Positions 27,091-50,455 of a stretch of 64,000 nucleotides of DNA are shown piece after piece. Where the stretch lies: NCBI GenBank assembly GCA_963707215.1, contig CAVPPB010000003.1, positions 352,001 to 416,000 on the forward strand, given 5' to 3'. The notes under the pieces were generated by a model that worked only from the letters and a program-made list of their open reading frames with translations, did not search any database and was not told the DNA's origin. The stretch comes from an uncultured Chloroflexia bacterium (lineage in GTDB: Bacteria > Chloroflexota > Limnocylindria > Limnocylindrales > CSP1-4). Positions within the stretch are counted from its first letter, which is position 1, and every line of letters begins with the position of its first letter. The position numbers and the translations under genes were made by a program.

Positions 27091-30563
<3,473 letters not shown>

Positions 30564-30567
<4 letters not shown>

Positions 30568-31803: not shown

Positions 31804-31813
31804 GGTCGACGTG

Positions 31814-31870
31814 CCTCCTTCCCGGCCTCACGGGACCGGTTCGCCGGCCTCACGGGACCGGCCGTCAAGG
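31814..31870 (-). promoter_or_regulatory. PyrR-binding RNA leader with two tandem binding loops
   Basis: Minus strand CCTTGACGG-CCGGTCCCGTGAGGCCGG-CGAA-CCGGTCCCGTGAGGCCGG-GAAGGAGG, directly upstream of carA; matches the GUCC(A/C)GUGAGGC PyrR loop with CCUU..AAGG base. Confidence 0.75.
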
Positions 31871-31877
31871 ACCGGCG

Positions 31878-35009: not shown

Positions 35010-35103
35010 GGCGGCCGCATTCTACGAGGGGCAGCCGATCCGACGGACCTGCCACCTGGCCCTGGGCGCGGGACGCGCCCGGCCGGATGCCGATGCGGGG
35101 GCG

Positions 35104-35664: not shown

Positions 35665-35839
35665 CGTCGGTCCCTTTCGATCGTCGGATCGAGTCCTCGA
35701 GCCGATCCGGGACCGACGATGGGTCTAGGCCGGGGGTCTGGGCATCGGGCAGCTGCCCTACGGAGGCGAGAGGATCCGGCGAGCTGAATCCGACGACCCG
35801 GGGGCGCCGCCTACCGGCGCTCCACTCGGCCGCTCGCGT

Positions 35840-36904
35840 CTACCAATCCTCGTGGACCGACACCGCCAGGTCGCTCATCCCTTCGAGCGAGTAGATCCGC
35901 TTCGTCCCGAAGCCCTTGACCTCGACCTCGCCGCGGTCTTGGACCGACACGTCGTCGCGGATGAGCTCGTAGAGGTCCTCGGCCATCATGATCCCCATGG
36001 GATCCGCGAGTGCCTCCATCCGGGCCGCCAGTCCGACGCCGGGCCCGAAGATGTCGTAGACGTACTTCTGGACGCCGATGATCGACCCGACGACGGGACC
36101 CGCGTTGATGCCGATCCGGCAGATCCACTGGTTCGACTGGGTGGCATTCCGGCGCTGGAGGTAGCGGACCATCCGGAGCGCGATCCGGGCGATGTTGCGG
36201 GGGTCGTCGGCTCCGGGCTCGGGGACGCCGCAGACCGCCATGTAAGCGTCGCCGATCGTCTTGAGCCGCTCGCCGCCGAACTGCTCCACGATCCGGTCGA
36301 ACGACGTGAAGATGTCGTTGAGCTCCGCGACGAGGGCCGGCGGATCGGCCGCGATGTCCATGTCGGTCGACGACACGAAGTCGAGCATGAGGACGGCAGC
36401 CCGGTCGAACCGCTGCGGCGCCGTGACCCCGAACTCCTTCCACTCCTCGTAGATCGTCCGGGGCATGATGTTGAGGAGGAGCTTCTCGACCCGCTCCTTC
36501 TCCTTGCGCAGGTCGCGGTTCTGGCGCTCGACCATCTTCGAGTACGACTCGACCATGTACTCGAGCTCCTTGAGCTTCGTCACGTTCACGCACTCGACGA
36601 CGAGCAGGTCAGTGCCGTCACCCTCGTGGTGCTTGACGTCGACGGCGATCGTCATCGCCCGACGGTTGACCTTCAGCTCGAGCTCGGTGCGGTAGGGCCG
36701 GTCACCGTCGAGGCGCGAGCGCATCCGCTCGACGTCGAGGCCCTCCAGGAGCTCGTCGAGGGGCGGATCGCCTTCGCCGGAGGCCGGGAACCACTCCTTG
36801 AAGCGAGCGTTGGCGAAGCGGATCACAAGGGTCTCGGGATCGGCCAGGGCGAGCCCGACCCCAGCGGACTCGAGGAGCAGCCGGTTGAACCGGTCGAGAT
36901 CCAT
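35840..36904 (-). CDS. PAS + class III adenylate/guanylate cyclase
   Basis: PAS-like N-terminus, coiled coil EKERVEKLLLNIMP, LKTIGDAYMAVCG, RIGINAGPVVG, YDIFG. Confidence 0.9.
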   Translation of the reverse strand: MDLDRFNRLLLESAGVGLALADPETLVIRFANARFKEWFPASGEGDPPLDELLEGLDVERMRSRLDGDRPYRTELELKVNRRAMTIAVDVKHHEGDGTDLLVVECVNVTKLKELEYMVESYSKMVERQNRDLRKEKERVEKLLLNIMPRTIYEEWKEFGVTAPQRFDRAAVLMLDFVSSTDMDIAADPPALVAELNDIFTSFDRIVEQFGGERLKTIGDAYMAVCGVPEPGADDPRNIARIALRMVRYLQRRNATQSNQWICRIGINAGPVVGSIIGVQKYVYDIFGPGVGLAARMEALADPMGIMMAEDLYELIRDDVSVQDRGEVEVKGFGTKRIYSLEGMSDLAVSVHEDW

Positions 36905-37290
36905 CACCCCGCCGCGGCGGTCGGGCTACCCGGGGCGGCGATGATCCACGGGGCGCGGACACGGAGCTCGTGGAGGACGCTGGCGACGTCGCCATCCTCC
37001 ATCTCGAAGTCCTCGAGCGCCTCCCGCATCGTCTCGATCATCACTTCGAACGAGGGGCGATCGATGCCGAGCCGGGCATGGACCTGGGCGAGGTGCTCGT
37101 TCGTGTAGCTCGCCGGCCCGCCCATCAGGAAGGCCATGAACTTCGTCTGGTGATCGATGAGCCGTCGCATATCGACGTCCTCGAAGTAGGGAGCGAGGAC
37201 ATCGGAATCGAGCACCTTGTCGTAGAAGGCCAGCACGACGCGGCTCAGGAACGGGAAGCCACCGTATCGCTCGAGGATGCTCCTGGCCAT
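36904..37290 (-). CDS. Group I truncated hemoglobin (trHbN-like)
   Basis: RYGG, FYDKVL (Tyr B10), YF, HQTKF, GGPASY, proximal His in QVHARLGI; TGATG overlap with the cyclase. Confidence 0.9.
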   Translation of the reverse strand: MARSILERYGGFPFLSRVVLAFYDKVLDSDVLAPYFEDVDMRRLIDHQTKFMAFLMGGPASYTNEHLAQVHARLGIDRPSFEVMIETMREALEDFEMEDGDVASVLHELRVRAPWIIAAPGSPTAAAG

Positions 37291-37449
37291 CCGCCACCTC
37301 CACTCCGGAGGCCCACCTTACCGTCGGCGTCGCGGAGCGTCCACCCGACGGATGGCCCGGCCGGGACTCCGTCATCCGACGTACGCCGGGTCGGTCGAGC
37401 GCCGGCGACGGTCCCCGGGTCGGTGCCGGCCTCCGTGGTCCCGGTCGGA

Positions 37450-37938
37450 TCACCCTGCGGGACGGAGGGCCCACTCGCGCCGATAGCCGAAGCCACGGCG
37501 ATTATCGACCAGGCGGATCCAGCCGGGACGAAGCCCGTAGAGCCAGTTGCCCTCCACGATCTCGGCCAGCTCGGCCACGATCGGGAACTTGCGTCGGTAG
37601 GCGTCCCAGGCCGCGTCCCAGGCGGCGCCGGAGGGGATCGGAGCGAACGTCCCCACGACCTGGAGGCCGCGGATCCGGGTCCAGTCCGTGACCACCGGGT
37701 AGATGGCGGCGGCCATCCTCGGATCCTCGATGGCGTGGCGGACGTGGACGCTGTCGGGGTCCGAGAAGAAGACGAGGTGCAGGTCCGCCTCCGCGGCGAA
37801 GAAGACCGGGGCGGCATGGGACTCGCCTGCTCGGCTCGAGGTGGCGAGCGTCATCGTCGAGATCGAGAGCAGCTCGAGGACGGCCTCGTCCTCCCAGGGC
37901 AGGCTGGAGGATCCGTCCGACTCACGCCATGACGCCAC
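37450..37938 (-). CDS. Pyridoxamine 5'-phosphate oxidase-like (YhbP-like) FMN-binding protein
   Basis: TMTLAT, HAAPVFF, SDPDSVH, IRGLQ, DNRRGFGYR; start uncertain. Confidence 0.75.
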   Translation of the reverse strand: MASWRESDGSSSLPWEDEAVLELLSISTMTLATSSRAGESHAAPVFFAAEADLHLVFFSDPDSVHVRHAIEDPRMAAAIYPVVTDWTRIRGLQVVGTFAPIPSGAAWDAAWDAYRRKFPIVAELAEIVEGNWLYGLRPGWIRLVDNRRGFGYRREWALRPAG

Positions 37939-38058
37939 GATCGCCCTTTCCTCCCCCTGTTCCGGTGGGCCCCACGCCCTGCCGTACGGTACAGGCCCCG
38001 GTGCTCCGGGCACCCGGATCCTGCGAAGGGCCGCGCCAGCGGACGCTCGAGGCGGATC

Positions 38059-38883
38059 TCAGCCGCGGCGGGCCAGGAAGCCGAGGACCTCGGCCGTCGA
38101 GCGCTCGGGGTCCTGCCAGAAGTAGCCATGCCGACACCCGGGGACGGTCCGCAGCTCGGCGTCGGGCAGGTGGGCGGCGAGGTACTCCGACTGCTCGAGG
38201 TGGGAGCCGGTCCCCCCGACGTGGGTGTCGAGCTCGCCGACGAGGACCAGCGTCGGCTGCCCGATCCGGTCGAGCAGCTCGGCAGTCTGGTGGCCCTGGC
38301 GGGCGACCACGTGCTTGAGGTAATCGCGGAGCGATGGGCGGTGCTCCCAGAAGGCCGAGATCAGGCGATCCACGACCTCGGGCTGTCGCTCGATGAATGC
38401 CGGCGTGAAGAGCGTCGTCCGGATCTGGTGCGCGATATAGCCCTCGTAGCCGAGCTCGATCATCGTCTCGGCCGCGGCGAGCGGGATCCCGCGCGCCTGC
38501 GGACGATCGGCCCGGGACTGGCCCGGGCCCGAGGCTGCCAGGATGAGGGTGGCGACCCGCTCCGGGGCATCGAGCGCCATCCACTGGGCGACCCGGCCAC
38601 CCATCGAGTGGCCCAGGACGTGCGCTCGGTCGACCCCGAGCTCTTCCAGCAGGCCGATGGCATCGGCGGCGAACAGGCGGGTCGTGTACTCGTCGGCTGT
38701 CCCCGGTGTCGCACCCGTGCCCCGATGGTCGAAGGTGACGACCGTGTGGCGCTGAGCAAGCGGCCCCACCAGCGCATCGGGCCAGGTCGCACCCGGGTAG
38801 CCGGTGCCGGCAACGAGCATGAGGACCGGGCCCTGCCCGTGGACCCGGTGCGCGAGGGGAACGGGACCGTCGTTCGACGCCAT
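38059..38883 (-). CDS. Alpha/beta hydrolase
   Basis: FDHRGTG, GHSMGG nucleophile, LVLVGELD, GCRHG. Confidence 0.9.
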   Translation of the reverse strand: MASNDGPVPLAHRVHGQGPVLMLVAGTGYPGATWPDALVGPLAQRHTVVTFDHRGTGATPGTADEYTTRLFAADAIGLLEELGVDRAHVLGHSMGGRVAQWMALDAPERVATLILAASGPGQSRADRPQARGIPLAAAETMIELGYEGYIAHQIRTTLFTPAFIERQPEVVDRLISAFWEHRPSLRDYLKHVVARQGHQTAELLDRIGQPTLVLVGELDTHVGGTGSHLEQSEYLAAHLPDAELRTVPGCRHGYFWQDPERSTAEVLGFLARRG

Positions 38884-39073
38884 CGAGCGCCTCAGGACCC
38901 GGAGACCGGGGCCGGGACGAAGGTCGCGATACCGCCGGCGGGAACGATGCACGCGAGCCGTGTCGCGCCGGTGTCGGCGGCGAGCAGCTGTCGCCGATCC
39001 CGTTCGTCGAGCATGCGAACACCATACGTGAGCCCGCAACGGCGCCGCGCTGCGGCTCGCGAGGCTGCAGCGA

Positions 39074-39104
39074 GGGGCCCGACGATCACACGTCGTCGGG
39101 CCCC
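39074..39104. terminator. Perfect 12-bp hairpin
   Basis: GGGGCCCGACGA-TCACACG-TCGTCGGGCCCC just after the stop of the 39123 gene. Confidence 0.55.
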
Positions 39105-39122
39105 GGTCGCTACGTCTGCGCC

Positions 39123-39371
39123 TCAGCCGTTCGCGCAGTGCTCCCCGCCCTGGCCCTGCCCGGCCCCCGGCGTGCCGACCGGCGGGAGCGGCAGGCTCAG
39201 GCCGGCCTGACCGGTGAGCGCTTCCTTGGCCATCCCGTTGTCGTTGCCGGGGCTACCGGCGGCATCGGCCGCGCAGGCCGATGACGGGATGACGACGTGG
39301 TGGAACGCGAGCGCCGGGGCCGGCAGAACGAGCACCGCGGCAAGCCCGAAGATCGCAGCGAGACGCCTCAT
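39123..39371 (-). CDS. Small secreted protein with two Cys
   Basis: AGGAGG RBS, signal peptide ending ALA, mature region FHHVVIPSSAC...EHCANG. Confidence 0.7.
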   Translation of the reverse strand: MRRLAAIFGLAAVLVLPAPALAFHHVVIPSSACAADAAGSPGNDNGMAKEALTGQAGLSLPLPPVGTPGAGQGQGGEHCANG

Positions 39372-39616
39372 GTTCACCCTCCTGAGCCTGGACTGGATGC
39401 AGGTGTGTACGTCGTCATCGCAGCGATGGTTTCGACCGCTGCCACCCGAACCGCCCCGGCTGGATCATCCCTCCACCGGGCCGACGCGCGGGGCGAGCTC
39501 GCCTGGGCTCGGCAGGCGCGGTACGCTCTTGCCGCGTCCCGTAGCTCCGCAACAGCGAGTTCACCATGGAACGAGCCAGCGGGATCGAGTCGCGGGCTGA
39601 CCCGGGACCCGGGGCG

Positions 39617-39910
39617 ATGGGCTATGCGAGGGTCGCCACCTGGACCGTCGGGTTCTGGCTCCTGTGCTACGCGATCGGCGCCCTGGCCTTCGGGCTTCTG
39701 ACCGTCGGGATCCTCGTGGTCGGCGTCGTGCTCGTGCAGATCCCGGTTGCGGCGGGCATGGTCGCCTACCTCGTGGGCCTGATCCTGGCGGGCCGGCGAT
39801 GCCACCTCCGCGGCGCGACCCAGTGGGCCTGCGCGGCCGTTGTCTCGATCGTCCCCGTCCTCGTCGTGGCGGCCGTATCGGTCCTGGCACTGGCAGCGCT
39901 CGGCGTCTGA
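39617..39910 (+). CDS. Small membrane protein (about 3 TM)
   Basis: Continuous hydrophobic ORF MGYARVATWTVGFWLL... Confidence 0.55.
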   Translation: MGYARVATWTVGFWLLCYAIGALAFGLLTVGILVVGVVLVQIPVAAGMVAYLVGLILAGRRCHLRGATQWACAAVVSIVPVLVVAAVSVLALAALGV

Positions 39911-40150
39911 ACCCCGGCCTGCCCGTTCGCCTGGCCCGCTCGGGTACCGCCCAGCCTCCACGGGGTCCCACCGTACCGACCCCCGGCCGCCGACCCGGCG
40001 GGGCCTGACTCGATGGCGTCGACGACGAGCAAGGCCGCCGCAGCAGGAGCGATCACCAGCCCGACGAATAGCATGAGCACGCTCACCACTGGAAGCTGAC
40101 GCCGCGAGGTGGCTGGGCCGTGCCGACAGGGCCCACCGCGCCCCCTGCTG

Positions 40151-40543
40151 TCAGGCGTCCCCGATCACGGCGATGGCCTGGATCTCGACGAGCATCTCGG
40201 GCCGCGCGAACCCTGTGACGGTGATCAGGGCGCTGGCCGGGAACCCGTCGGGGAAGTAGCCCTTGCGGATCTGGGTGAACTCCTCGCCGTGCCGCGGATC
40301 GAGGATGAAGACGGTCATCGTGACGATGTCGGCCAGTCGACCGCCACAGCGGTCGAGCGTGCCCGCGATCTCCCGGAACGTGGCGTGGACCTGCCCCGCG
40401 AAGTCGCCCCGCAGGACGCGCCCCGTGTCATCCCGCCAGGCACCGACACCAGCCAACCAGACGAGACGACCGCCGGTCGTGACGACCGCCGGCGAGAAGG
40501 CGCGCTCCGCCTCCCAGGTCCCGGTGATGTGCTGCCTTGGCAT
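40151..40543 (-). CDS. RidA/YjgF family protein
   Basis: AFSPAV, DFAGQ, FPASALI, LVEIQAIA; GGAGGG RBS. Confidence 0.85.
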   Translation of the reverse strand: MPRQHITGTWEAERAFSPAVVTTGGRLVWLAGVGAWRDDTGRVLRGDFAGQVHATFREIAGTLDRCGGRLADIVTMTVFILDPRHGEEFTQIRKGYFPDGFPASALITVTGFARPEMLVEIQAIAVIGDA

Positions 40544-40765
40544 CGATCCCTCCAGTCCTGCGACGCCGGCCATCCTCGGGGCAGTCTACGGCTGGCGGAC
40601 GATCCGTTCCCGGGATCGCGGGAGAGGCCGCCGTCGTGGTCGCTGCCCTCCTCCTCGCATCCTCCACCGTGCCTCCATGGCCGTTCCATGCAGGGCAGGC
40701 CCAATAGGGATGCGACCCGCGTCACTCCGTGTGGCGTCAGAACGGAGCGAAAGGAACCACGTCCC

Positions 40766-41563
40766 ATGCCGCTGATGACACGATCCCGATCCACCGACCG
40801 CCTCGGTCGACGCCCGGCGGCCCTGCTGGTCGCCGGCCTCGGCGTCGCCCTGGTCGCTGGTGCCTGCGCGCCCGGGGACGTCTCCGACGCAGCCGCGCGG
40901 GGTCCGCTCGATGGCCGTAGCGGCGAGGCCGCAGGGGGCCGCGGGCACGGAGGCGGCACCGGCGTCGGGTCGACCGGTCTCGGGGAACGAGGGGGCGGCC
41001 AGGACGACGATCAGGGGACGAGCCTCGCTCCGCTCCCGATCGCCACCCTGACGGACCAGGAGGTCGAGTCGCTCCTCACCATGCGCGAGGAGGAGAAGCT
41101 CGCCCACGACGTCTACGTGGCCCTCGGCGAGACGTGGGGCAGCCGGATCTTCGAGAACATCGCCCGGGCCGAGGCGAACCACGTCGCGGCGGTCAAGGCC
41201 CTTCTCGATCGCTACGACATCGCCGATCCGGCGGACGACCTGGCCATCGGGGAGTTCACTGATCCCGAGGTCCGGGCGCTGTACGACGAGCTTGTCACCC
41301 GAGGGCGCACGTCCATCACCGAGGCCTTCGCGGTCGGCGCGCAGATCGAGGACCTCGACATCAGCGACCTGCGGGAGCGGGCGACCGACACGCAGGACAT
41401 CGACAAGGTCTTCGATGCCCTCGAGCAGGGGTCCGAGAACCACCTGCGCGCGTTCGTACGGAACCTGGACCGCCTCGGCGTGACGTACACGCCGACCTAT
41501 CTCTCCGCCGAGGAGTACGAGTCGATCATCGGCTCGTCACACGGGCAGGGTAGGCCGGCCTGA
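40766..41563 (+). CDS. DUF2202 ferritin-like lipoprotein
   Basis: Lipobox-like AGAC; MREEEKLAHDVY, FENIARAEANH, IEDLDISDL, GSENHLRAF. Confidence 0.85.
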   Translation: MPLMTRSRSTDRLGRRPAALLVAGLGVALVAGACAPGDVSDAAARGPLDGRSGEAAGGRGHGGGTGVGSTGLGERGGGQDDDQGTSLAPLPIATLTDQEVESLLTMREEEKLAHDVYVALGETWGSRIFENIARAEANHVAAVKALLDRYDIADPADDLAIGEFTDPEVRALYDELVTRGRTSITEAFAVGAQIEDLDISDLRERATDTQDIDKVFDALEQGSENHLRAFVRNLDRLGVTYTPTYLSAEEYESIIGSSHGQGRPA

Positions 41564-41593
41564 GCGCGGCAACCGACCTCACGGAGGCTTCCC

Positions 41594-42235
41594 ATGACCA
41601 CGGTCACCCTCACGGCAACGCCCATCGCGAGACCCACCCGGGCGCGACTGGTCTTCTATGTCCGCGCGATCGTCGCGATCGCGATGGTCGCGACCTGGGT
41701 GCTGTCCGCGCTCAGCGGGCTGGCGCTGTGGCTGGCCATGGATGGCCCCGGAGCCCTCGAGACTCCGGCAGCTCTCGGGCTGACGAAGCACGCCTGGGAC
41801 GACATCCACGTCGTGGGGTCCTTCCTTGCCATCGGCCTGACGCTCGTGCATGTGTCCTTGATGCGACGAGGCATCGTCGCCTACGCCCGGCTCATCGTGA
41901 CCGGGCGGCGGAGCCTCTCGACCCGGGTCGTCCGGCGGCCCAAGGCGGTCGTGTACGTCCGCGCCGTCGCCGTCGCCGTCTTGGTCGTCCTGGTGCCCCT
42001 GGCCTTCGTCAGCGGCGTCGTCCCGTGGCTGGCACCCGAGGTCCGCCGCGCGGGCCAGCAGGTCCTCCTGCTCGGCCTGACGAAGCACGGATGGGTGGAC
42101 GTCCACACAGCCGCCACGATCGGCGCGATCCTCGTGTCGATGACCCACGTCGTCGTCGTCCGGGCCGGGCTCGTGGCTGATGTGCGCCTCCTCTTGACGG
42201 GCCAGAGGAGCGGCCCTCGGGCTGTCCGTCGCTGA
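41594..42235 (+). CDS. Membrane protein with duplicated DUF4405-like domains
   Basis: Two repeats of SG..W...LGLTKH.W.D.H......HV. Confidence 0.75.
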   Translation: MTTVTLTATPIARPTRARLVFYVRAIVAIAMVATWVLSALSGLALWLAMDGPGALETPAALGLTKHAWDDIHVVGSFLAIGLTLVHVSLMRRGIVAYARLIVTGRRSLSTRVVRRPKAVVYVRAVAVAVLVVLVPLAFVSGVVPWLAPEVRRAGQQVLLLGLTKHGWVDVHTAATIGAILVSMTHVVVVRAGLVADVRLLLTGQRSGPRAVRR

Positions 42236-42258
42236 CGGCGGCGAAGGTGCCACCCTGA

Positions 42259-42291
42259 CCGGCCCCCGTCGCCCGGCCGTGGGCTGTTCGC
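42259..42291 (+). repeat. Array repeat copy 1 (left arm only)
   Basis: CCGGCCCCCGTCGCCCGGCCGTGGGCTGTTCGC. Confidence 0.9.
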
Positions 42292-42347
42292 CTTGTTGCG
42301 GGACGTCCCGCACCGACGGGGCTCCGACCGCGGGCTAGGATCGGGGC

Positions 42348-42491
42348 ATGAGCGCCATCCGTGTCATCAGCATCGCCATGACCTTGGTGCTCCTCGGCCT
42401 GACGGCCCTGGTCGTCATCGGAGCGCTGATACCGACCACACTCGGCGGGCCGATCCTCGACGTCCTTCCGAGCCCGACGGTGGCGCCCTAG
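42348..42491 (+). CDS. 47-aa single-TM protein (not in the ORF track)
   Basis: MSAIRVISIAMTLVLLGLTALVVIGALIPTTLGGPILDVLPSPTVAP*; TAGGAT -10 six nt upstream of the ATG. Confidence 0.6.
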   Translation: MSAIRVISIAMTLVLLGLTALVVIGALIPTTLGGPILDVLPSPTVAP

Positions 42492-42511
42492 ATGCGTCGA
42501 GGTAGGGGGAA

Positions 42512-42597
42512 CCGGCCCCCGTCGCCCGGCCGTGGGCTGGTCGCTCTCCCCGTGGGTCAGCGAGATCGCCCCCGGCCGGCCCGGAGCGGGGGGCCGG
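42512..42597 (+). repeat. Array repeat copy 2 (full-length 86-bp imperfect palindrome)
   Basis: CCGGCCCCC...GGGGGCCGG ends, with inner pairs CGGCCG/CGGCCG, GGGC/GCCC, TCGCT/AGCGA. Confidence 0.9.
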
Positions 42598-42641
42598 CGC
42601 GTCAGGCTCGATGGGGCTGCTGAGCGGTCGCCGACCCTCCC

Positions 42642-44162
42642 TCAGTCACAGACCGTGGTCGGGGCCTTCTCGCTGACGACGCCGGTCCCGCCGAGCATGG
42701 CGATCTGGACCGGGCCGAGGCGCTCGAGCTCGGTCGCCACGACCGGAGGCAGACAGCTCTGGCGGGTCAGCAGGAGCGGCCCCTCGACCAGGCTCACGAG
42801 GGGCACCCCGGCCAGGGCGTCGGGGAAGTTCACCCCGGTCGCGAGGTAGACCGTGTCGGCGCCACCGGGGAAGGCCTGCGCGCCGATGGCGGCACTCGTC
42901 GCGTAGCGGTCGGCACCGGACCAGCGGCTCACCGGGATCCCCGGGAACAGCGCCTTGAGGTCATCAACGACCCCCGAGCCGAGGACGCCGGTCCCGCCGA
43001 GGAGGACGAAGCTCGTCGGCGTCAGCCCCTCGTAGGGTCCGATCCCGACCAGAGGGGCGACGAGCACGTCGGGCACACCGCTCCAGGTGGCGAGGATCAC
43101 CGGCGCGCCGACGGCCGCCGCGGCCGCCCCGCCGGCGAGGGCATCGGGGAAGTTCGCCCCAGTGGCGACGAAGATCGGCCCGGTGTAGCCGGCGAAGCGG
43201 GCGTCGAGGATCGCGGCCGCGGTCGCGTAGCGGTCGGCCCCGGCGAGCCGGGTCACCGAGCCGGTGGTGAAGGCCTTGAGCTCATCGCGGACCGCGTTCG
43301 AGACGACCCCGGTCCCGCCGAGGATGCGAATCTGGCCGGGCTCGAGCCATTCGAGCGCCTCGGCCACGACGTCGGGCAGCCGGTCGGGCCGGGTCAGCAG
43401 GACCGGCCCACCGTCCTTGGCCGCCGCCGGACCGCCGGTCAACGCGTCGGGGAAGTTGTAGCCGGTGGCGATGTAGGCGACGGGCACGCCTGGCGAGAAG
43501 CCATAGGCCGTCTCGGCGGCCGTGGCGAAGCGGTCGGGACCGGCAAACCGGGTCAGCGACTGCTGGACCCATGTCGTGAAGGCGAGGTCATGGCCGTCAC
43601 TTCGGCTCCAGTGCTCGTCGTAGGAATGGGTGAGGTACATGTGGCCGCCGAAGTAGACGTTCATGTACCGCCTGTTGTAGGCGAAGCCCCAGTGACCTGC
43701 CCCTTGGGGCGTGGGCTGGACGACGAGCGCAAGCACATCGCCGGCATCGACCTGCAGCGGGTGTGGGATGGTGAATGTGATCCACTCTGCGGTGTCGACC
43801 ACGTCACTGTCGATCGGACCCACCGGGATGGCCGCCGGAGGGACGGGCTCGCTCGTCGCGAGGAGCGCGCCTTCCGGTGTGTCATCTCGGATCTCGATGA
43901 CGAGATCCTGTGTCGTGTCGGCCATCCGGTTCACCAGCAGGTCGACGTAGGTCAGGGAGCCGGCCACCCCGACCGTGAATGTCTGGGCGATCCCGTCGAA
44001 GCACATTCCGTCGTCCCGGGTAACGCAGTACATGCCGTCCGCGACATCCTGCACTTGGTCGGAGTCTGACCACTGGGCGGAGGCCGGCGTCGCAGGGGCG
44101 ACCATGACCAGGACCAACCCGGTCGCAAGACCGATCAGTCCGGCACGCATTGGCATCTTCAC
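42642..44162 (-). CDS. Secreted protein with three cell-wall-binding repeat 2 (CW_binding_2) domains
   Basis: Signal peptide; three R.AG.DR(F/Y)AT ... ATG.NFPDAL ... LGGTGVV repeats. Confidence 0.88.
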   Translation of the reverse strand: MKMPMRAGLIGLATGLVLVMVAPATPASAQWSDSDQVQDVADGMYCVTRDDGMCFDGIAQTFTVGVAGSLTYVDLLVNRMADTTQDLVIEIRDDTPEGALLATSEPVPPAAIPVGPIDSDVVDTAEWITFTIPHPLQVDAGDVLALVVQPTPQGAGHWGFAYNRRYMNVYFGGHMYLTHSYDEHWSRSDGHDLAFTTWVQQSLTRFAGPDRFATAAETAYGFSPGVPVAYIATGYNFPDALTGGPAAAKDGGPVLLTRPDRLPDVVAEALEWLEPGQIRILGGTGVVSNAVRDELKAFTTGSVTRLAGADRYATAAAILDARFAGYTGPIFVATGANFPDALAGGAAAAAVGAPVILATWSGVPDVLVAPLVGIGPYEGLTPTSFVLLGGTGVLGSGVVDDLKALFPGIPVSRWSGADRYATSAAIGAQAFPGGADTVYLATGVNFPDALAGVPLVSLVEGPLLLTRQSCLPPVVATELERLGPVQIAMLGGTGVVSEKAPTTVCD

Positions 44163-44297
44163 GGTGCACTCCCTGGGACGCCTGGATCACGGGTCGGTCT
44201 CGCCAGTGGCACGGCTCGAGCCGGCCACGGCATGGGTCACTGCACCCAGCGCCACCCGTGTGGCACCTGATCGACGCCCAACAGGCAGATGTGTTGC

Positions 44298-44344
44298 GCC
44301 CCCGTCGCCCGGCCGTGGGCTGGCCGGCGTCCCCCCAGGGTCAG
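44298..44344 (+). repeat. Array repeat copy 3 (truncated after GGGTCAG)
   Basis: GCCCCCGTCGCCCGGCCGTGGGCTGG...CCCCCCAGGGTCAG. Confidence 0.88.
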
Positions 44345-44541
44345 TAGCGAGCCGCTGCAAACAGGGCGACCAGAGCGACCGGGATCATCAGGAGCGCGAA
44401 GACGAGCCCGCCATTGATACAGGCGACCGACCCCGATCCACACCCCGAGGCGGTGATCACTCAGGCGACCAGGGCCGCGATCATGGCACCGACGACCGCG
44501 ACGAGGGAGAAGATCGCCACCCGCGCTCCCCGGTAGCCCAT
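44341..44541 (-). pseudogene. Small two-TM protein with an in-frame TGA
   Basis: MGYRGARVAIFSLVAVVGAMIAALVA*VITASGCGSGSVACINGGLVFALLMIPVALVALFAAARY*. Confidence 0.55.
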
Positions 44542-44593
44542 GCGGTAGTAGCGCCCACCCGCCCGGAACATTGCTGACCACCGCCTGTGGGCG

Positions 44594-44672
44594 GGCCCCC
44601 ATCGCCCGGGCGTGGGCTGGTCGCCTCGACGCGGCCCAGCGAGATCGCGGCGGCCGGCCCGGAGCGGGGGCC
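44594..44672 (+). repeat. Array repeat copy 4 (full-length, diverged)
   Basis: GGCCCCCATCGCCCGGGCGTGGGCTGGTCGC...CAGCGAGATCGC..CGGCCGGCCCGGAGCGGGGGCC. Confidence 0.88.
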
Positions 44673-44704
44673 GTGGCGCCAACGTAGGTGGCGCGGCTCA
44701 CCGG

Positions 44705-44741
44705 AGACTCACCAGCCATGCGACGCCGCGATCCCGAGCGC
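44705..44741 (+). repeat. Second repeat type: 5' end of the small MRxRDPER ORF
   Basis: 34/37 identical to 46970-47006. Confidence 0.85.
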
Positions 44742-44752
44742 TCCTCGCCGCC

Positions 44753-44944
44753 CTACTTCCGATCCGCCTCCTGCCTGAGCACGGTGGCCAGAGACGAGCC
44801 GGCCATCATGGTGATTCCAACGATGCCGATCATGGCGGCGGGACCGGAGTCGATGACGCCCAGGAACAGCAACGCTGCCGCGGCGAGCACTATCAGCAGC
44901 CCACCGAGCGCAATCAGCACGCCCAGGAGCCTGGCCCTGTCCAT
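44753..44944 (-). CDS. 63-aa two-TM membrane protein
   Basis: MDRARLLGVLIALGGLLIVLAAAALLFLGVIDSGPAAMIGIVGITMMAGSSLATVLRQEADRK*. Confidence 0.65.
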   Translation of the reverse strand: MDRARLLGVLIALGGLLIVLAAAALLFLGVIDSGPAAMIGIVGITMMAGSSLATVLRQEADRK

Positions 44945-44999
44945 GGCGGTCAGGCTGCCGGTCGAGGAACGTAACGGGCAAGAGGCCGAGGGCCTGAAC

Positions 45000-45029
45000 G
45001 GCCCCCGTCGCCCGGCCGTGGGCTGGTCG
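45000..45029 (+). repeat. Array repeat copy 5 (left arm only)
   Basis: GGCCCCCGTCGCCCGGCCGTGGGCTGGTCG. Confidence 0.9.
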
Positions 45030-45088
45030 GCATCAGTCCGCAGGACTCTTGCGAGGCCACGTTGCGGCGAGAACAGTTGGCTGTCGTG

Positions 45089-46267
45089 GTGCACGTCCTG
45101 GCGAGTGTGCTCAAGGTCGCACTTGGGGCTGCCCTGGTCGCGGGTGGTCTCGTCGGGGTCGTCTACATCAACGCCGAGATCGAGCGGTCGGCTTCGCTTG
45201 AGCCGTCGGCGCCTCCCGAGCCGAACCAGTCGGCCATCGACTACAACTGCAGTCTCCCCGGCATGGGCTACCCGTGGCTTCGGCAGGACCTGTCCTACAC
45301 GGTGCAGTTCACGACTTCTGCGGTCTTCGTGTCCACCGTGCCGGACGTCTCGCCGTGGGCCGCCTTCCTGCCGATATCCATTGCCGGGGACGGGACCGCG
45401 CTTTCGATGGATGACGTGTACCGGAGACTGTGTCGCGTCCACCCTCAGCTCGGTGGAGGCGGCCTGACCCGGGTCTCCACCGAGGTAGCGAAGCAGTTGG
45501 TGTGCGGGGGCCAGGACCGGTGCCTGCAGCGGGAGTGCGATGACTTCCCGGACCTCTACACCGACAGGCTCCCGCTGACAGTCGATGAGGCGCGCATGTG
45601 CCTGGAGCCAATCAGGATGTACTGGTTGCCGCCCATTCCCCAGGACCTCCGTGACGCCTTGGCAACAGCGGTGGCATCCGGAAGGACGCCGGGCCCCTCC
45701 TCGGCGCCGACACCGGCGCCGAGCGGCGAGACTCGCCGCTACCGCATCACGGTCAACGGCTACGAGAACGTGTTCTACTGGAACATCGGTGAGCGCCTAG
45801 GCGTGCGCTTCGACTACCGCCTGATCGGGGAGTTCGCGCTGGTGCGCCCGACCCCAACAAGGCCCTGGACCGTCACGAGCAGACGTGTCATCACGGCTGA
45901 CCTCAAGTACACGAGCCTGTACCCGGCGGACCGCTACGAGGTCACTCTGGACTGTGTGCGCCGGAGCCGCTCGTGTGAGGGGCATCTCATCCGGAGCACC
46001 ACCCTGCGGCTGCGGGTGCAGGTGGACGGCGACGAGATCATCGCGCGCTGGGGTGCCTTCAGGCCCGAGGTTCTGGTGACTGGGAGACGGACAGACCCTC
46101 TCGAGACGGTCCGTTCCTCCTACATCTCCGAGTACTTCGATGACGCCGTCGCGGCGGAGCGCCTGCCCCTGCGGGACCAGTACGTCGGCCCGCAGCGGGT
46201 CAAGACGTACCAGGGTCGCAGCGACATCTCAACCAGCTACGCATACCGCCTCGACCGACTCCCGTGA
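45089..46267 (+). CDS. Membrane-anchored/secreted hypothetical protein, Cys-rich
   Basis: N-terminal TM, Pro-rich linker, several Cys; long ORF with lower GC; start uncertain. Confidence 0.7.
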   Translation: MHVLASVLKVALGAALVAGGLVGVVYINAEIERSASLEPSAPPEPNQSAIDYNCSLPGMGYPWLRQDLSYTVQFTTSAVFVSTVPDVSPWAAFLPISIAGDGTALSMDDVYRRLCRVHPQLGGGGLTRVSTEVAKQLVCGGQDRCLQRECDDFPDLYTDRLPLTVDEARMCLEPIRMYWLPPIPQDLRDALATAVASGRTPGPSSAPTPAPSGETRRYRITVNGYENVFYWNIGERLGVRFDYRLIGEFALVRPTPTRPWTVTSRRVITADLKYTSLYPADRYEVTLDCVRRSRSCEGHLIRSTTLRLRVQVDGDEIIARWGAFRPEVLVTGRRTDPLETVRSSYISEYFDDAVAAERLPLRDQYVGPQRVKTYQGRSDISTSYAYRLDRLP

Positions 46268-46363
46268 TCGAGAGTCACGGAGCATCGCATCCATACCTCC
46301 GGTCCACGCGCCGTGCTCCTGGGACTTTCCGTCGAGCTCCTCGACCTCTGTCACGAGTCGAAC

Positions 46364-46437
46364 GGCCCCCGTCGCCCGGCCGTGGGCTGGTGGCCTTCCC
46401 CCCTGGGTCAGCGAGGTCGCGCCGGCCGGCCCGGAGC
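46364..46437 (+). repeat. Array repeat copy 6 (nearly full-length)
   Basis: GGCCCCCGTCGCCCGGCCGTGGGCTGG...GGGTCAGCGAGGTCGC..CGGCCGGCCCGGAGC. Confidence 0.9.
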
Positions 46438-46561
46438 TTGTGCGCGGACTGCCGTCGAGCAGCTTCTGGGCCGCGACCGACGTGCTCCGCGAGATCACCC
46501 TCGATCGCGCGGACTAGACTACGCGACGCGACGCGTCCGTTACGTGAACGTTGGTGACCTC

Positions 46562-46954
46562 ATGACAACCAGACGCCTGCCAGCGCAGCTGGCCTTCGCC
46601 TCGCTTCTGTCGCTGGCCGTCACAGACATCCTCTTTGTGTTCCTGGTGGCGGTGGACGTTCTATCCGGGGACGAAGCCCTGTCGGTGGCAACACCCAAGA
46701 TGATCTACTTCTCCCTGATGGCCAGCCTCTCCTTCTTCTCGCTTCCTCTCATTTGGTGGGGGAACAGGATTGGCTACTACGTCGCGATGGCTGTTGCGGC
46801 TCTCTCGTTGCTCGCCGGCGTTTCCGGGGTGTGGTCGGCCCTCACAGGCGCGGTGCCCGTCGATGTGAACGTGCTTTCGGGGCTTGTCGGCCTGGCCCTG
46901 TCGACGATCCTGCTTGTCTCCTCCGGGTACGCCTCCAGAGAGAAAGCGGGATAG
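46562..46954 (+). CDS. 130-aa four-TM membrane protein
   Basis: MTTRRLPAQLAFASLL...; visibly T-rich and lower GC than the host genes. Confidence 0.75.
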   Translation: MTTRRLPAQLAFASLLSLAVTDILFVFLVAVDVLSGDEALSVATPKMIYFSLMASLSFFSLPLIWWGNRIGYYVAMAVAALSLLAGVSGVWSALTGAVPVDVNVLSGLVGLALSTILLVSSGYASREKAG

Positions 46955-46982
46955 ACAGTCGCCGGCCGCAGACTCACCGGCC

Positions 46983-47210
46983 ATGCGATGCCGCGATCCC
47001 GAACGCCTCCACCTCGCCGGCTGAGCCGCCCACCTCGCCCGGCTGCTCGATGCCGGATACGCCCCAGGAGCCGCCGAGGAGGCGATGGTGACCTGGGAGT
47101 GCGAGCCGGACGCCGAGGGCCGCCAGCGCGGCACCTCGGCGTTCTGGGACGGGCTGGAGGCGCGGGCGGTGGAGCGGCGGGCTACTCGCTCGGACTCGAT
47201 CCAACCATGA
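46983..47210 (+). pseudogene. Small helical ORF with an in-frame TGA (47022-47024)
   Basis: MRCRDPERLHLAG*AAHLARLLDAGYAPGAAEEAMVTWECEPDAEGRQRGTSAFWDGLEAR...; its 5' end is duplicated at 44718. Confidence 0.5.
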
Positions 47211-47560
47211 AGGGCGCCCAGATCCCCGAGAAGCCGTCGTCGCCCTCGAGGTGGACCTCGAATGTCACGGTCTCGGCGAAGAGCTCAGCCTCTGTGTAGT
47301 CGATGCCAAGGTATCGGAGATAGATGGTCGACTCGTACTCGCGATCCCGAGAGCCGCTGCAGGGCATGTTGAAGTTCTGGAGCCTGGTTCTCGGGTGCGT
47401 ATCGGTCGTCAGGTGGATCGACCAGAACAGGTCGGGCTGGATCAGGCACCACGGCCCCTTGAACCTACATGTGATGTAGATCCCGTCGCAGTTCTGGTGG
47501 GCCTCCGAGAAGGGCCTCTGGATGCGAACCGAGCCGACCGAGTCGCCGGCGAAGATGGCG
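47182..47560 (-). pseudogene. 3' fragment of an unknown protein
   Basis: Protein-like text IFAGDSVGSVRIQRPF...GIWAPFMVGSSPSE* with no own start; abuts the Prim-Pol fragment. Confidence 0.45.
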
Positions 47561-47700
47561 GCCACCGCTCGATCGTGTCGAGGTTCGTGGTCGCGTCCTT
47601 GAAGCCGTCCGGGGCGAGCCGTGGGACCGGGTGCTTGCCCGGCGAGGGACAGTCGTCCTTGGCCCACATGCAGCCGACGTCGCTGCCCCGGTAGCGGTGG
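47561..47700 (-). pseudogene. Bifunctional primase-polymerase (Prim-Pol) N-terminal fragment
   Basis: GCMWAKDDCPSPGKHPVPRLAPDGFKDATTNLDTIERW matches the C..GKHP....G.KDATT...I..W signature. Confidence 0.7.
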
Positions 47701-47709
47701 CGGCACCCG

Positions 47710-48014
47710 ACGCGCCTGACTACTTCCGGTTCGCCGTCACGGGCCAGCTCATGCGGGCGGTCCTGAAGGAGCTGCCGACGTGGCCGTACGAGACGCTGAT
47801 CGTCTTCCGGCCGTGGCTCGACAACGGGGCGGCATATCTACAAGCCGTCGGCGACGGGGTCGTCATGCCTGAGCGATGGTTCGATTGGTTCCCCGGCTGC
47901 TACGTCGACCGGGAGTCGCTAGAGGCGGCCCAGGGACTGACCCACGCCACAGCCACCGTGACGGCGCACGACGCGACCGTCCGCACCACAAGTCCGAAGG
48001 GGGTGACCCGGTGA
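47710..48014 (+). pseudogene. 3' part of the gene preceding the integrase (5' end lost)
   Basis: DYFRFAVTGQLMRAVLKELPTW...KGVTR*; stop overlaps the integrase GTG. Confidence 0.4.
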
Positions 48015-49097
48015 GACGCTACGGTGAGGGAACCATCCTCCAGCGATCGAACGGTCGCTGGCAGGCCCGCTGGCTCGTGGACGGCCGGCGGTACTCGGTC
48101 ATGGGCGCGACGAAGCGGGAGGCCCGTGAACGGCTCAGGGCGGCCCTGGCAGACCGGGACAGCGGTGGGCGATCCGTGGACACGCGCAGGACGGTCGGGG
48201 CGGTCCTTGACGAGTGGCTGGCGGTGCGAGTCCGGCAGCGACTGCGCCCGCAGACGGTCGCCAGCTATGAGCGACTGGTCCGCCTCTACATGAAGCCGGC
48301 GATCGGCTCGGTGCCGGTCGCGAAGCTCACGGCAGCCGACATCTCCAAGATGCTCGAGCGGATGTCGGTCAGCGGCACGACGAAGCGGTACACCCTCGTG
48401 GTCCTCCGGGTGGCGCTCGCCTGGGCCGTCCAGCATGACATGGCGCGGCGCAACGTCGCGGCGCTCGTCGAGCTCCCGGAGCGGTCGACGACCGAACGGG
48501 CCCCTACTCGACCGAACAGGTCGTCCGGCTACTCGACGCCACGGCGGACGAGCCCGTCGGGCCCGTGCTGGCGCTCGTCGCCTCGACCGGGTTGCGCCAA
48601 GGCGAGGCGCTCGGGCCGGCGTGGAGCGACGTCGACCTGGAGGCCGGCGCGATCACCATCCGGCAGTCACTGGATCCGCACACGCGGACGCTGGCGCCGA
48701 CGAAGACCGAGAAGTCGCAGCGGACGCTCAACCTGCCCGGGCTTGGGCGGCGCTCCGGGAGCAGCGTCGACGGCAGCTCGAGGCCCGGCTTGCGGCCGGG
48801 CGGAAGTGGCAGGACTCGGGGCTCGTCTTCACGACGAGCGTGGGATCCCCGATGGACGCCGCGGCGGTCGTCCGCGCCGACCACGCGGCCTGTGCTCGTC
48901 TCGGCCTCGAGCGGAGGCGCTTCCACCACTTGCGGCACTTCGCGGCGACGGCGGCGCTCGAGGCCGGCACCGACCTGTATGCCGTGTCGAGGATGCTCGG
49001 CCACGCCTCGATCACGACGACGGCGAACGCCTACGGCCACGTCACCCCGGCGATGCGGCGCCGGACGGCCGAGCTCATGGACGCCGCTCGCGGGTGA
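48011..49097 (+). pseudogene. Phage/Tn916-type tyrosine integrase with two frameshifts (about 48505 and 48745)
   Basis: RRYGEGTILQRSNGRWQAR arm-binding N-terminus; TGLRQGEALG; TKTEKS; FHHLRH; MLGHASITTTANAYGH, across three frames. Confidence 0.9.
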
Positions 49098-49133: not shown

Positions 49134-49165
49134 AACGGCCCTCGGAGACGCCTCCGGGGGCCGTT
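49134..49165. terminator. Hairpin between the convergent integrase and tRNA
   Basis: AACGGCCCTCGGAG-ACGC-CTCCGGGGGCCGTT. Confidence 0.7.
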
Positions 49166-49181
49166 TCGTGCGTGGAAGTGG

Positions 49182-49256
49182 TGGTGAGCCCGGAAGGATT
49201 CGAACCTTCAACCTAGTGATTAAGAGTCACTTGCTCTGCCGTTGAGCTACGGGCCC
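49182..49256 (-). tRNA. tRNA-Lys (anticodon CTT)
   Basis: GGGCCCGTAGCTCAACGGCAGAGCAAGTGACTCTTAATCACTAGGTTGAAGGTTCGAATCCTTCCGGGCTCACCA; stem AGTGA/TCACT around CTT, T-loop GTTCGAATC, encoded CCA. Confidence 0.97.
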
Positions 49257-49372: not shown

Positions 49373-50455
49373 TCACCCAGGTCCACCGGGCCGGGACCGC
49401 TCGAAGACCGCCCCGAGGATGGCCAACCGCCGCTCCAGGCTCCGTCGCTCGTTGGTGCCGTGCTGCATCAGGTGCGAGAACTCGACGAGCGCAGCGTCCT
49501 GGGATTCCTCGGGCTTGTCGAGCTCGGCCTTGCGGATCCGCTGGAACTCCTCGAGGAAGGTCCGCAGCGCGTCCGGATCGATGACAGCACCCGACCGGTC
49601 CAGCTCCCGGACGAACAAGTAGTACAGCGGCACGTACGACTGGGCTCCCAGGAGGTGGTCGGCGTGGCCGAAGATCGCCTCCAGGCGACCAAGCCGGGCG
49701 TCGACGCGACCGGCGAGCTCCGTCCTCTCGGGCTTCGTCATCCGGCGATTCGCGCGCACGAACTCGTCGAGGGCCTTGCCCTTGAGGTCCGGGATCTGGC
49801 CGTCGGCGCCGCGAGCGTCCGCCGCCTCGATGAGCAGCATCCGGGCGGCCAGGTCGAGGTGCTGGTAGCGCGCGTTGGAGAAGCGCAGACGGTCGGCGAA
49901 GAACGGTCGATGGGCAAGCTCCCGGATCAGCTGGGCCATGTCCCCGCCCATCGCGTTGCGCTTCTCGGCGGCGTTCAGCGGCTCCCCGTTGTTGAGCCGC
50001 GAGAAGAGGTCCTCGATGTCGTCCTCGGTCGCGTTCTGGATGAGGACGACGGAGATGTAGGTCAGTCGCAGGACCTGCTGCCAGGCGGGGTGGAACTCCG
50101 AGAAGCGCATCCCGGCGAGCGGCGGCGGTGTCGTGGGCGGGAGGTCCGGAAGGTTCGCTTCGACGATCCGGAAGTCGGGAGCGAGTGGGAACTCGTCTCC
50201 CAGGAAGCGCCAGATCGTGGTCAGTCGCTGCTTCCCATCGACGATCGTGTAGACCTTGGTCGGGTGCTTCCCGCGCAGGTCATGGAGGTAGATCTTCGGG
50301 ACGTCATAGCCGTTCAGCAGCGAGTCGACGAAGAGCTGCTGCTTGTCGAGCGACCACAGCGAACTCTCCCGCTGGTAGGGCGGGTTCTCCTCGATGGCGC
50401 TCCGCCAGGCCAGCGCCTTGGCGACGGTGAAGTGGTGGGCGAGAACGCAGCGCAT
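49373..50455 (-). CDS. DUF262 (ParB-like, GmrSD N-terminal) domain protein
   Basis: PPYQR..W, FVDSLLNGYDVPKIY, VDGKQRLTTI, LFSRLNNGEPLNAAEKRNA. Confidence 0.85.
   Translation of the reverse strand: MRCVLAHHFTVAKALAWRSAIEENPPYQRESSLWSLDKQQLFVDSLLNGYDVPKIYLHDLRGKHPTKVYTIVDGKQRLTTIWRFLGDEFPLAPDFRIVEANLPDLPPTTPPPLAGMRFSEFHPAWQQVLRLTYISVVLIQNATEDDIEDLFSRLNNGEPLNAAEKRNAMGGDMAQLIRELAHRPFFADRLRFSNARYQHLDLAARMLLIEAADARGADGQIPDLKGKALDEFVRANRRMTKPERTELAGRVDARLGRLEAIFGHADHLLGAQSYVPLYYLFVRELDRSGAVIDPDALRTFLEEFQRIRKAELDKPEESQDAALVEFSHLMQHGTNERRSLERRLAILGAVFERSRPGGPG

Follow-up and report, generated by a model that had tools for sequence, protein, structure and literature searches.

The window analysed here is a stretch of 64,000 nucleotides (C3:352001-416000) of the assembly GCA_963707215.1 (G000), a metagenome-assembled genome (MAG) of an uncultured Chloroflexia bacterium of the order Limnocylindrales, which comprises 3.26 Mb in 5 contigs with 72% G+C and is 85% complete. 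It contains an array of six copies of a 26-nt core repeat, GGCCCCCGTCGCCCGGCCGTGGGCTG, with one gene in each interval between neighbouring copies, and beyond the array a phage-type tyrosine integrase gene and a tRNA-Lys(ctt) gene (Table 1). An earlier note, made from the sequence alone, had described the locus as an integron-like array of palindromic repeats associated with this integrase. We find the array to be genuine and unusual. It does not qualify as an integron, and the neighbouring integrase probably does not act on it. It is best filed under repeat-bounded modular islets, in which a lineage-specific mosaic repeat serves as the joint and the islets turn over at tRNA genes.

We scanned the window for the core with up to three mismatches. 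The six matches are all on the plus strand at the positions given in the earlier note, with core-to-core spacings of exactly 253, 1783, 297, 406 and 1364 bp, as it had reported. No further matches were found in the window at this threshold, and 100 dinucleotide-preserving shuffles of the window gave none. Open reading frames (ORFs) were confirmed in all five intervals, a single gene in each as had been claimed, and the gene strands are mixed. Alignment of the six copies separated two classes. Copies 2, 4 and 6 run on into a conserved tail (...GTCGCC..GCGAGATCGCGCCGGCCGGCCCGGAGCGGGGGCC) that is able to pair back onto the core, giving a longer unit of approximately 75-82 nt, whereas the sequence shared by copies 1, 3 and 5 is the core alone. 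In these last three copies the second arm is missing. Identity between copies 1 and 2 is limited to CC and the 26 nt, and that between copies 5 and 6 to GAAC, the 26 nt and GT. Conservation of the primary sequence peaks in GTCGCCCGGCCGTGGGCTGGTCGCC, and the reverse complement of the core contains GGCGAC twice, 19 nt apart, together with an imperfect palindrome (CCGGCC-GTG-GGCTGG). Several cores are preceded by plus-strand genes that end 2-26 nt ahead of them. Short public contigs, possibly from the MAG's own sample, cover copies 3 and 4 and both of their flanks with 0 differences.

The strand opposite to the core carries the regulatory half of the architecture, a promoter-like module and riboswitches, which the earlier account of the array had missed. 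Self-comparison of G000 revealed a conserved module of about 55-60 nt (module A) that recurs about ten times and that, elsewhere in the genome, usually precedes a c-di-GMP-II-GAG riboswitch (RF03169) on the strand opposite to the core; module A may act as a promoter. The RF03169 model has 20 matches in G000 at E<=0.01, an expanded set for a genome of 3.26 Mb; 17 of them are above the gathering score (42-72 bits), and half of the matches (10/20) have a repeat copy no more than 1.5 kb away. On the strand opposite to the core, the elements recur in the order hairpin tail, core, module A, riboswitch and, last, a gene for a small membrane or secreted protein. This order is uninterrupted at C1:101155 and C3:339791 in G000 and at C318:1791, C121:5344, C128:3990 and C139:683 in G001, the sole congener of G000. 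On the core strand, a conserved leader and a 74-aa ORF (MRRRD...) come after the full unit. This ORF is intact at C3:185889-186113 and truncated after copy 4, where homology stops after its eighth codon. At 46983-47210 it is separated from copy 6 by a gene for a protein with four transmembrane helices (4-TM), past which the remainder of the element (leader and ORF) restarts at 46966. The 74-aa ORF belongs to no Pfam, PHROG or NCBIfam family; among proteins of similar length, the only lengths searched, it has seven homologues, and their named sources are all Limnocylindrales. Six contigs of public run X1 have C at 47022, where the window has T, which converts the in-frame TGA of the window copy to CGA (Arg) and matches the intact paralogue.

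Examples of RF03169 are found at C3:1272910-1272993 and C1:101234-101320. The mapped islet copies precede small secreted or membrane orphan genes, two occasionally occur in tandem units, and G001 carries the GCG variant (RF03170) too. To our knowledge, the ligand of the c-di-GMP-II-GAG variant has not been established.

The earlier note had seen no copies of the core elsewhere. This is correct for the window and incorrect for the genome, in which we found 15 matches at up to three mismatches (0 for the reversed control) and 22 hits at E<=1e-3 with a profile built from 20 copies. Grouped with a gap of less than 5 kb, the 22 copies form eight loci of 4, 3, 1, 1, 5, 1, 6 and 1 copies. Neighbouring copies are co-oriented in all 14 pairs of the four multi-copy clusters (4, 3, 5 and 6 copies), as they are in 9 of 9 adjacent pairs in G001 (23/23 over both genomes). 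Among 41 related genomes, a core with up to three mismatches is present in two, G000 and G001. A covariance model of the full unit (R1) hit three of 61 family genomes: G000 12 times, G001 13 times and G058, a genome of another genus, once. The G058 copy is a diverged lone hairpin located directly 3' of a small membrane-protein gene. The exact 26-mer is present in G001 at C126:3337. An exact 24-mer was found in two genome records, both of G001, and in two metagenome contigs with a single copy each, one of them about 1 kb downstream of a tRNA-Arg(ccg) gene. The core forms the constant portion of a mosaic intergenic repeat that is specific to the genus: G000 and G001 share it, and one match falls in another genus. 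Coding DNA of the two species is about 75-88% identical. Their orthologous copies at tRNA-Leu(caa) differ at 4 of the 26 core positions, and other copies in both species equal the consensus. This suggests that copies are renewed or exchanged, and not that they are under uniform constraint.

The repeat loci are associated with tRNA genes. Four of the eight G000 loci are within 3 kb of one (Leu(caa), Asn(gtt), Pro(ggg) and Lys(ctt)), against a mean of 0.79 over 20,000 random placements (P about 0.005). A tRNA survey of G001, covering 20 contigs, placed its 20 repeat hits on 11 contigs, six of which have a tRNA gene within 1 kb of the repeat. The orientation of the core relative to the nearby tRNA is mixed (four the same, six opposite). 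Repeat-bearing inserts of 2.5-4.1 kb are present in G001 at tRNA-Val(tac), tRNA-Arg(tct) and tRNA-Ser(tga), as is a repeat-bearing stretch of undefined extent 3' of tRNA-Leu(taa), and the counterparts of all four sites in G000 are empty. Turnover is also seen in the other direction, as the syntenic G001 flanks of the five-copy G000 locus (C3:181-186 kb) enclose 4 kb without repeats. Left of the window array, synteny with G001 ends at about 39900, beyond which the G001 units are homologous to other G000 islets. On this comparison, made at the left side of the array, gene content is not conserved in the congener.

Separate from the core repeats, several islets bear classical integration scars and are bounded by fragments of tRNA genes. 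The 4.8-kb islet at C1:717584-722435 lies 3' of tRNA-Gly(ccc) between direct copies of the 3' end of that tRNA gene, 55 bp long when perfect and about 80 bp when mismatches are allowed; no PF00589 integrase domain was found in it, and its other ORFs were not scanned against family libraries. One gene for a secreted protein, under riboswitch control, is present in this islet. Another islet, of 1.5 kb, is enclosed by a 36-nt repeat of the tRNA-Pro(tgg) 5' half, and an islet on G001 contig C126 is bounded by a repeat of a tRNA-Arg 5' half, with an integrase remnant inside (24.6 bits) and the cores internal. The core itself is not such a fragment of the tRNA-Lys gene. No 16-mer taken from the last 45 nt (3') of tRNA-Lys has another copy in G000; a blastn-short search of the window for a tRNA-Lys-derived repeat found nothing convincing, and local alignment across 30000-47900 did no better than with shuffled queries. 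In G001, a truncated core (CGTGGGCTGGTCGC) at C270 (L034) ~4660-4685 begins 8 nt past the CCA end of tRNA-Val(tac), which places the tRNA-side junction of that islet inside a core.

A further motif, CACGCACGAAAC or its reverse complement, is located within about 20 nt 3' of tRNA-Lys(ctt) (49150-49181), tRNA-Pro(ggg) at C3:156785 and tRNA-Leu(caa) at C1:101008, and in partial form within about 20 nt 3' of tRNA-Gly(ccc) at C1:717660. After tRNA-Lys it leads into AACGGCCCCCG, which equals, in inverted orientation, the first part of the core together with the GAAC that commonly precedes it.

Islets also share sequence with one another. The stretch C1:103793-104427 is 77% identical to C3:182263-182901, and this homology ends about 10 nt from the core at C3:182913. 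Window positions 47052-47559 are 96% identical to C1:103219-103728 (511 nt), with about 440 nt (47120-47559) near-identical by eye, and the homology stops abruptly within the 174-aa gene. This looks like a recent conversion or transfer between islets.

The anatomy, distribution, co-orientation, mosaic flanks and islet turnover are observed directly. We infer in addition that recombination takes place at the core and that the elements around it serve as terminator and promoter. Our favoured explanation, held tentatively and with rather less than even confidence, is that expression units of one gene each meet at the core, within small variable islets that may have been built by recombination there. 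The core is joined to at least three kinds of left flank (module A, the stop codons of genes, and others) and to at least three kinds of right flank (the hairpin tail, a 'gtcaggacc' class, a 'caacg' class and unique ones). Removal of one core and the gene beside it from pairs 1/2, 3/4 and 5/6 recreates the canonical tail-core-promoter joint. The co-orientation, the mosaic flanks and these restored joints, with identity of only ~28-32 nt, are the grounds on which we read the core as a recombination joint. Insertion of circles or unequal exchange would yield direct repeats automatically, which neither the dispersal of a selfish repeat nor a mere regulatory site would do. Also in favour of the explanation are the sharing of units between islets, the turnover of islets, their linkage to tRNA genes, the apparent renewal of copies and the low G+C content of the inserted 401-aa and 4-TM genes (62-68%).

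Under this explanation, the canonical unit, on the strand opposite to the core, would consist of a tail ending in the core, a promoter-like module, a riboswitch and a small gene, and the hairpin would most likely terminate or insulate transcription before the promoter of the next unit. Circles or sister copies carrying one core could recombine at a resident core, by Campbell-type insertion or unequal exchange, and the insert would be left between two direct copies of the core. The window would then comprise three canonical joints, each with one extra gene: copies 1/2 around the 47-aa gene, copies 3/4 around the broken two-helix gene and copies 5/6 around the 401-aa gene. We assume that host recombination acts on the short identical core and that no dedicated enzyme takes part. 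As for the serial accretion proposed in the earlier note, some serial insertion at the repeat is still the best reading, and the analogy to integrons and the link to the integrase are dropped.

A number of observations weigh against this explanation. Half of the G000 clusters, including the one with five copies, are more than 9 kb from any tRNA gene. Circles, empty sites within arrays and polymorphism of units between strains were not seen in three public DNA runs (word shares 0.16, 0.07 and 0.06; 85% likeness; no RNA run), in which the reads, as 151-nt contigs, reach only ~2-3x; the four read joints listed have sides of 21-24 nt and are unreliable. An identity of 26-32 nt is near the lower limit of RecA-type exchange, and a dedicated recombinase would better account for recurrent use of precisely these nucleotides; the gene for such an enzyme may be unassembled in a genome that is 85% complete. 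The 4-TM gene is located within the tail and leader and not at a core, and other joints are inverted or deleted fragments, which indicates that illegitimate events shape the islets as well. The division of the array into 'canonical' and 'inserted' units is not unique. A scan for sigma-70 promoter and intrinsic terminator consensus sequences gave 0 and 0 hits. For the long hairpin, covariation measures were reached by 142-242 of 500 shuffles and the observed pairing by 179 of 500. Finally, the evidence comes from two MAGs of one genus.

A purely cis-regulatory explanation would make the core and hairpin a terminator, insulator or operator ahead of the promoters of a riboswitch regulon, without any special role in recombination; the arrays would have arisen by tandem duplication followed by gene replacement. 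The order of tail, core, module A and riboswitch recurs in both species, half of the riboswitches are close to a repeat copy, plus-strand genes stop shortly before several cores, and the single G058 copy is an isolated hairpin immediately 3' of a gene for a small membrane protein, all of which this explanation would accommodate. Pairing potential is likewise in its favour: for the 20-pair long hairpin, 77% of cells can pair, compared with 27-49% when the arms are slid as a control. The capacity to form the hairpin is real; selection on its structure is not supported. Single-sequence folds were no better than shuffles (z -0.92 to 0.65), RNAalifold on 24 full units kept only a 6-bp stem within the core (CCGGCC-GTG-GGCTGG), and we found no covariation, T-tract, terminator consensus or promoter consensus. 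In addition, copies 1, 3 and 5 have no hairpin partner, copies 1, 2 and 6 have no gene on the promoter side, and only about 6-7 of the 20 riboswitches have a core upstream. Tandem duplication also leaves unexplained the unrelated genes of lower G+C content that lie between identical 26-mers. We consider a purely cis-regulatory explanation rather unlikely.

The brevity of the duplicated identity, with unrelated DNA on either side, would also be expected of a dedicated cassette system, in which the core of 26-31 bp is the attachment site of a site-specific recombinase acting in trans, and single-gene circles with one core integrate at, and are excised from, resident cores; this would make a platform distinct from integrons on tRNA-linked islets. 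Such a system would agree with the strict co-orientation (23/23), with the exact conservation of the core between species whose coding DNA has diverged and with the GGCGAC pair and imperfect palindrome of the core. Integrase remnants are present in two islets, that of the window and that of G001 C126. Against it, the PF00589 domain occurs at only three loci in G000, a XerC-like gene, a XerD-like gene and the window integrase, and the assembled 85% of the genome offered no candidate; a Y1 transposase of the RAYT (REP-associated tyrosine transposase) type (PF01797) had 0 matches in this assembly, and no serine recombinase was found in it. In G001, islets at five tRNAs had no PF00589 hit, and the ends of the C126 element are tRNA-Arg repeats and not cores. 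No excision product was seen in the reads, which are too shallow to weigh. For these reasons a dedicated cassette system appears unlikely. An undescribed Chloroflexota cassette system that stockpiles co-oriented, riboswitch-controlled envelope genes on tRNA-linked islets, delivered to different tRNAs by different integrases, appears doubtful to the same degree.

The Xer machinery of the host was a further candidate. In pdif modules, or integrative mobile elements exploiting Xer recombination (IMEX), small modules of genes are delimited by sites of about 28 bp, which in the case of pdif switch orientation from one to the next. The core resembles them in having a site of ~28 bp in a genome with XerC/D-like genes, and differs in having no dif-like ATAA-N6-TTAT centre. 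The sole ATAA-N6-TTAT site with free flanks in G000, at C3:40313-40340 (ACTACCGATAAGGTAAGTTATGTCCTGC), is a candidate dif and is unlike the core, which does not show an 11-6-11 architecture with an AT-rich centre resembling the host dif; the scan used the general dif consensus.

The earlier note had linked the array to the integrase beside it. We found a PF00589 domain within 10 kb of only one of the eight G000 repeat loci, that of the window, and since the other seven are free of integrases the link is removed. The integrase has N-terminal Phage_int_SAM_3 and Phage_int_M domains, with the catalytic domain spread over two further frames. The apparent frameshifts, near 48495 and 48740, are each at a short G/C run and may be assembly errors, so the gene is not called dead with certainty. 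Its C-terminal piece scores 33.7 bits against the integron integrase model TIGR02249 (cut-off 265) and 21.3 against PRK15417 (cut-off 435), compared with 49.9 for XerC (TIGR02224) and 41.1 for XerD (TIGR02225). It is a generic phage-type tyrosine recombinase. We assume that this enzyme is a component of the entire tRNA-Lys islet and does not act on the core.

Accretion at a tRNA or tmRNA gene is another arrangement to compare, examples being the ssrA islands of Dehalococcoides (PMC3146451) and the cis-mobilisable element (CIME) accretion cited in that paper. The Dehalococcoides host is likewise a member of the Chloroflexota, tandem co-oriented direct repeats extend past a small RNA gene, integrase-less units stand beside one integrase, and content is strain-specific. 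The islets described here also share with accretion the occupation of tRNA-adjacent sites that are empty in the relative. In those systems, however, the direct repeat derives from the 3' terminus of the targeted RNA gene, and each unit is a many-kb island that includes an integration module (PMC3146451). The repeat described here has no relation to any tRNA, does not change from one tRNA to another and encloses single genes of 0.25-1.8 kb. A tRNA-accretion repeat was rejected on these grounds, as the core does not derive from the tRNA-Lys end and the same core is found at islets of different tRNAs.

A selfish repeat, multiplying in the manner of repetitive extragenic palindromes (REPs), bacterial interspersed mosaic elements (BIMEs) or miniature inverted-repeat transposable elements (MITEs) and preferring the intergenic DNA of islets, is highly improbable. 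Enterobacterial REPs and BIMEs occur in hundreds of dispersed copies of alternating orientation and are served by a RAYT transposase. The repeat has in common with them GC-rich, hairpin-capable intergenic units with short modules, located after stop codons and restricted to a lineage (3/61 family genomes); its mosaic of modules resembles that of BIMEs, and some copies equal the consensus while an orthologous copy has diverged. It differs in having only ~22 copies in 3.26 Mb, gathered at eight loci and strictly co-oriented within clusters, and no RAYT-type Y1 transposase was found in the 85% complete genome. REPs and BIMEs were rejected on copy number, loci and transposase, and MITEs on the lack of duplications flanking full units: by inspection, neither terminal inverted repeats nor target duplications surround them, and the tail is followed on its right by the conserved leader. 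The earlier note had itself named genome-wide scatter of the REP or MITE kind, regardless of integrases, as evidence that would count against it. The repeat is indeed independent of integrases, and its copies are clustered and not scattered like REPs.

The resemblance to sedentary chromosomal integrons and to CALIN, that is, clusters of attC sites lacking integron integrases, remains to be weighed. As described by Cury et al. 2016 (PMC4889954), these have co-oriented, near-identical sites around single, mostly orphan genes, and CALIN form several integrase-less clusters per genome whose content differs between close relatives; the same paper lists Chloroflexi among the phyla with integrons. 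The islets share these features. They differ in having no IntI, no attC end boxes and no demonstrable constraint for a folded site, in that half of the sites are bare 26-mers, in that genes lie in both orientations, many with their own promoter and riboswitch, and in that clusters stand beside tRNA genes. Inspection of 40 copies for attC boxes (RYYYAAC and GTTRRRY) showed GAAC before some cores and no GTTRRRY at the far end, with no R''/R' boxes, and no Rfam family matched the repeats at E<=1. Further, the integrase is at the far end of the array, beyond two other genes, unlike an attI and common-promoter layout. Integrons were rejected on the integrase, the end boxes, the strands of the genes and the module and riboswitch that units carry, and CALIN, for which at least two attC sites must lie within 4 kb of DNA that has no integrase, because the clusters are present and the sites fail the attC features. 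With Xer models scoring equally well or better on the integrase, and with no covariation, an integron or CALIN is almost certainly not what the locus represents, and the integron-like description in the earlier note does not hold.

The genes between the repeats are mostly orphans with signal or membrane segments, and the few domains found in islet genes are PKD, CW_binding_2 and SRPBCC. The single genes mostly encode orphan envelope or secreted proteins. The 401-aa and 174-aa proteins and a 455-aa protein have no family in Pfam, PHROGs, NCBIfam or PADLOC. G+C content is 66-68% over the 401-aa gene stretch, against 72% for the genome, and 62-64% over the 130-aa (4-TM) ORF. The 63-aa ORF starts at the position where the riboswitch begins in paralogous units.

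Between the end of synteny and copy 1, window positions 40109-42235 contain a DUF2202 gene and a DUF4405 membrane gene, for which no DNA match was found in G001. Across tRNA-Lys, 49373-50455 (minus strand) encodes a protein with a GmrSD_N domain (E 2.7e-19) and a match to the PADLOC model NsnA (E 7.9e-29), likely a defence nuclease bordering the islet. Small membrane proteins of one family (MQDADLFLELAAIAG...) have numerous paralogues in G000, some within repeat islets and some outside; members are found at C1:748414-749899, C3:830542-831144, C1:257492-258018 and C3:153675-154343, with three in tandem at C1:748-750 kb.

Table 1. Repeat copies, genes and other features of the array and its right flank (positions in the window).
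Feature	Position	Strand	Remarks
Copy 1	42261..42286	+	Core only, 0 mismatches; 26 nt past the stop of the DUF4405 gene; own, different small hairpin 3'
47-aa ORF	42348..42491	+	One hydrophobic helix; interval of copies 1/2; no Pfam family
Copy 2	42514..42595	+	Core (0 mismatches) and hairpin-forming tail (full unit); 22 nt past the stop of the 47-aa ORF
506-aa secreted protein	42642..44162	-	CW_binding_2 x3 (E 7.9e-52); interval of copies 2/3
Degenerate c-di-GMP-II-GAG-like leader of the CW_binding_2 gene	44183..44265	-	31.8 bits, failing the RF03169 gathering score of 40
Copy 3	44297..44322	+	Core only, 1 mismatch; on the minus strand, immediately 5' of the riboswitch-like leader that precedes the CW_binding_2 gene
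Small two-helix membrane ORF	about 44337..44570	-	In-frame TGA; interval of copies 3/4; read by eye
Copy 4	44594..44745	+	Core (2 mismatches), tail to 44672, leader and first 8 codons of the 74-aa 'MRRRD' ORF
63-aa membrane ORF	44753..44944	-	Interval of copies 4/5
Module A	44941..44999	-	Conserved 59-nt promoter-like module; flanked by the ATG of the 63-aa gene and by the core of copy 5 in reverse complement
Copy 5	45000..45025	+	Core only, 0 mismatches; module A on its left
401-aa orphan	45062..46267	+	TTG start, hydrophobic N-terminus; interval of copies 5/6
Copy 6	46364..46437	+	Core (0 mismatches) and tail cut off at ...CCCGGAGC
130-aa multi-helix (4-TM) membrane ORF	46562..46954	+	3' of copy 6, within the split copy of the element
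74-aa 'MRRRD' ORF copy	46983..47210	+	In-frame TGA at 47022-47024
174-aa orphan	47182..47706	-	
Phage-type tyrosine integrase	47876..49097	+	Three frames; 1.5 kb past copy 6, abuts tRNA-Lys(ctt)
tRNA-Lys(ctt)	49182..49256	-	3' end toward the integrase and the array

If the repeat is merely a terminator or insulator that recombines by chance, the islets would be an instructive but ordinary case of islet shuffling mediated by a repeat. The approximately 20 copies of the riboswitch variant constitute a defined regulon in which its ligand could be sought. If the core is a slot for single genes, it would represent a second, independent route to gene-cassette arrays besides integrons, in Limnocylindrales, a poorly known lineage of soil and sediment, and it would show the envelope proteins of a bacterium being diversified unit by unit.

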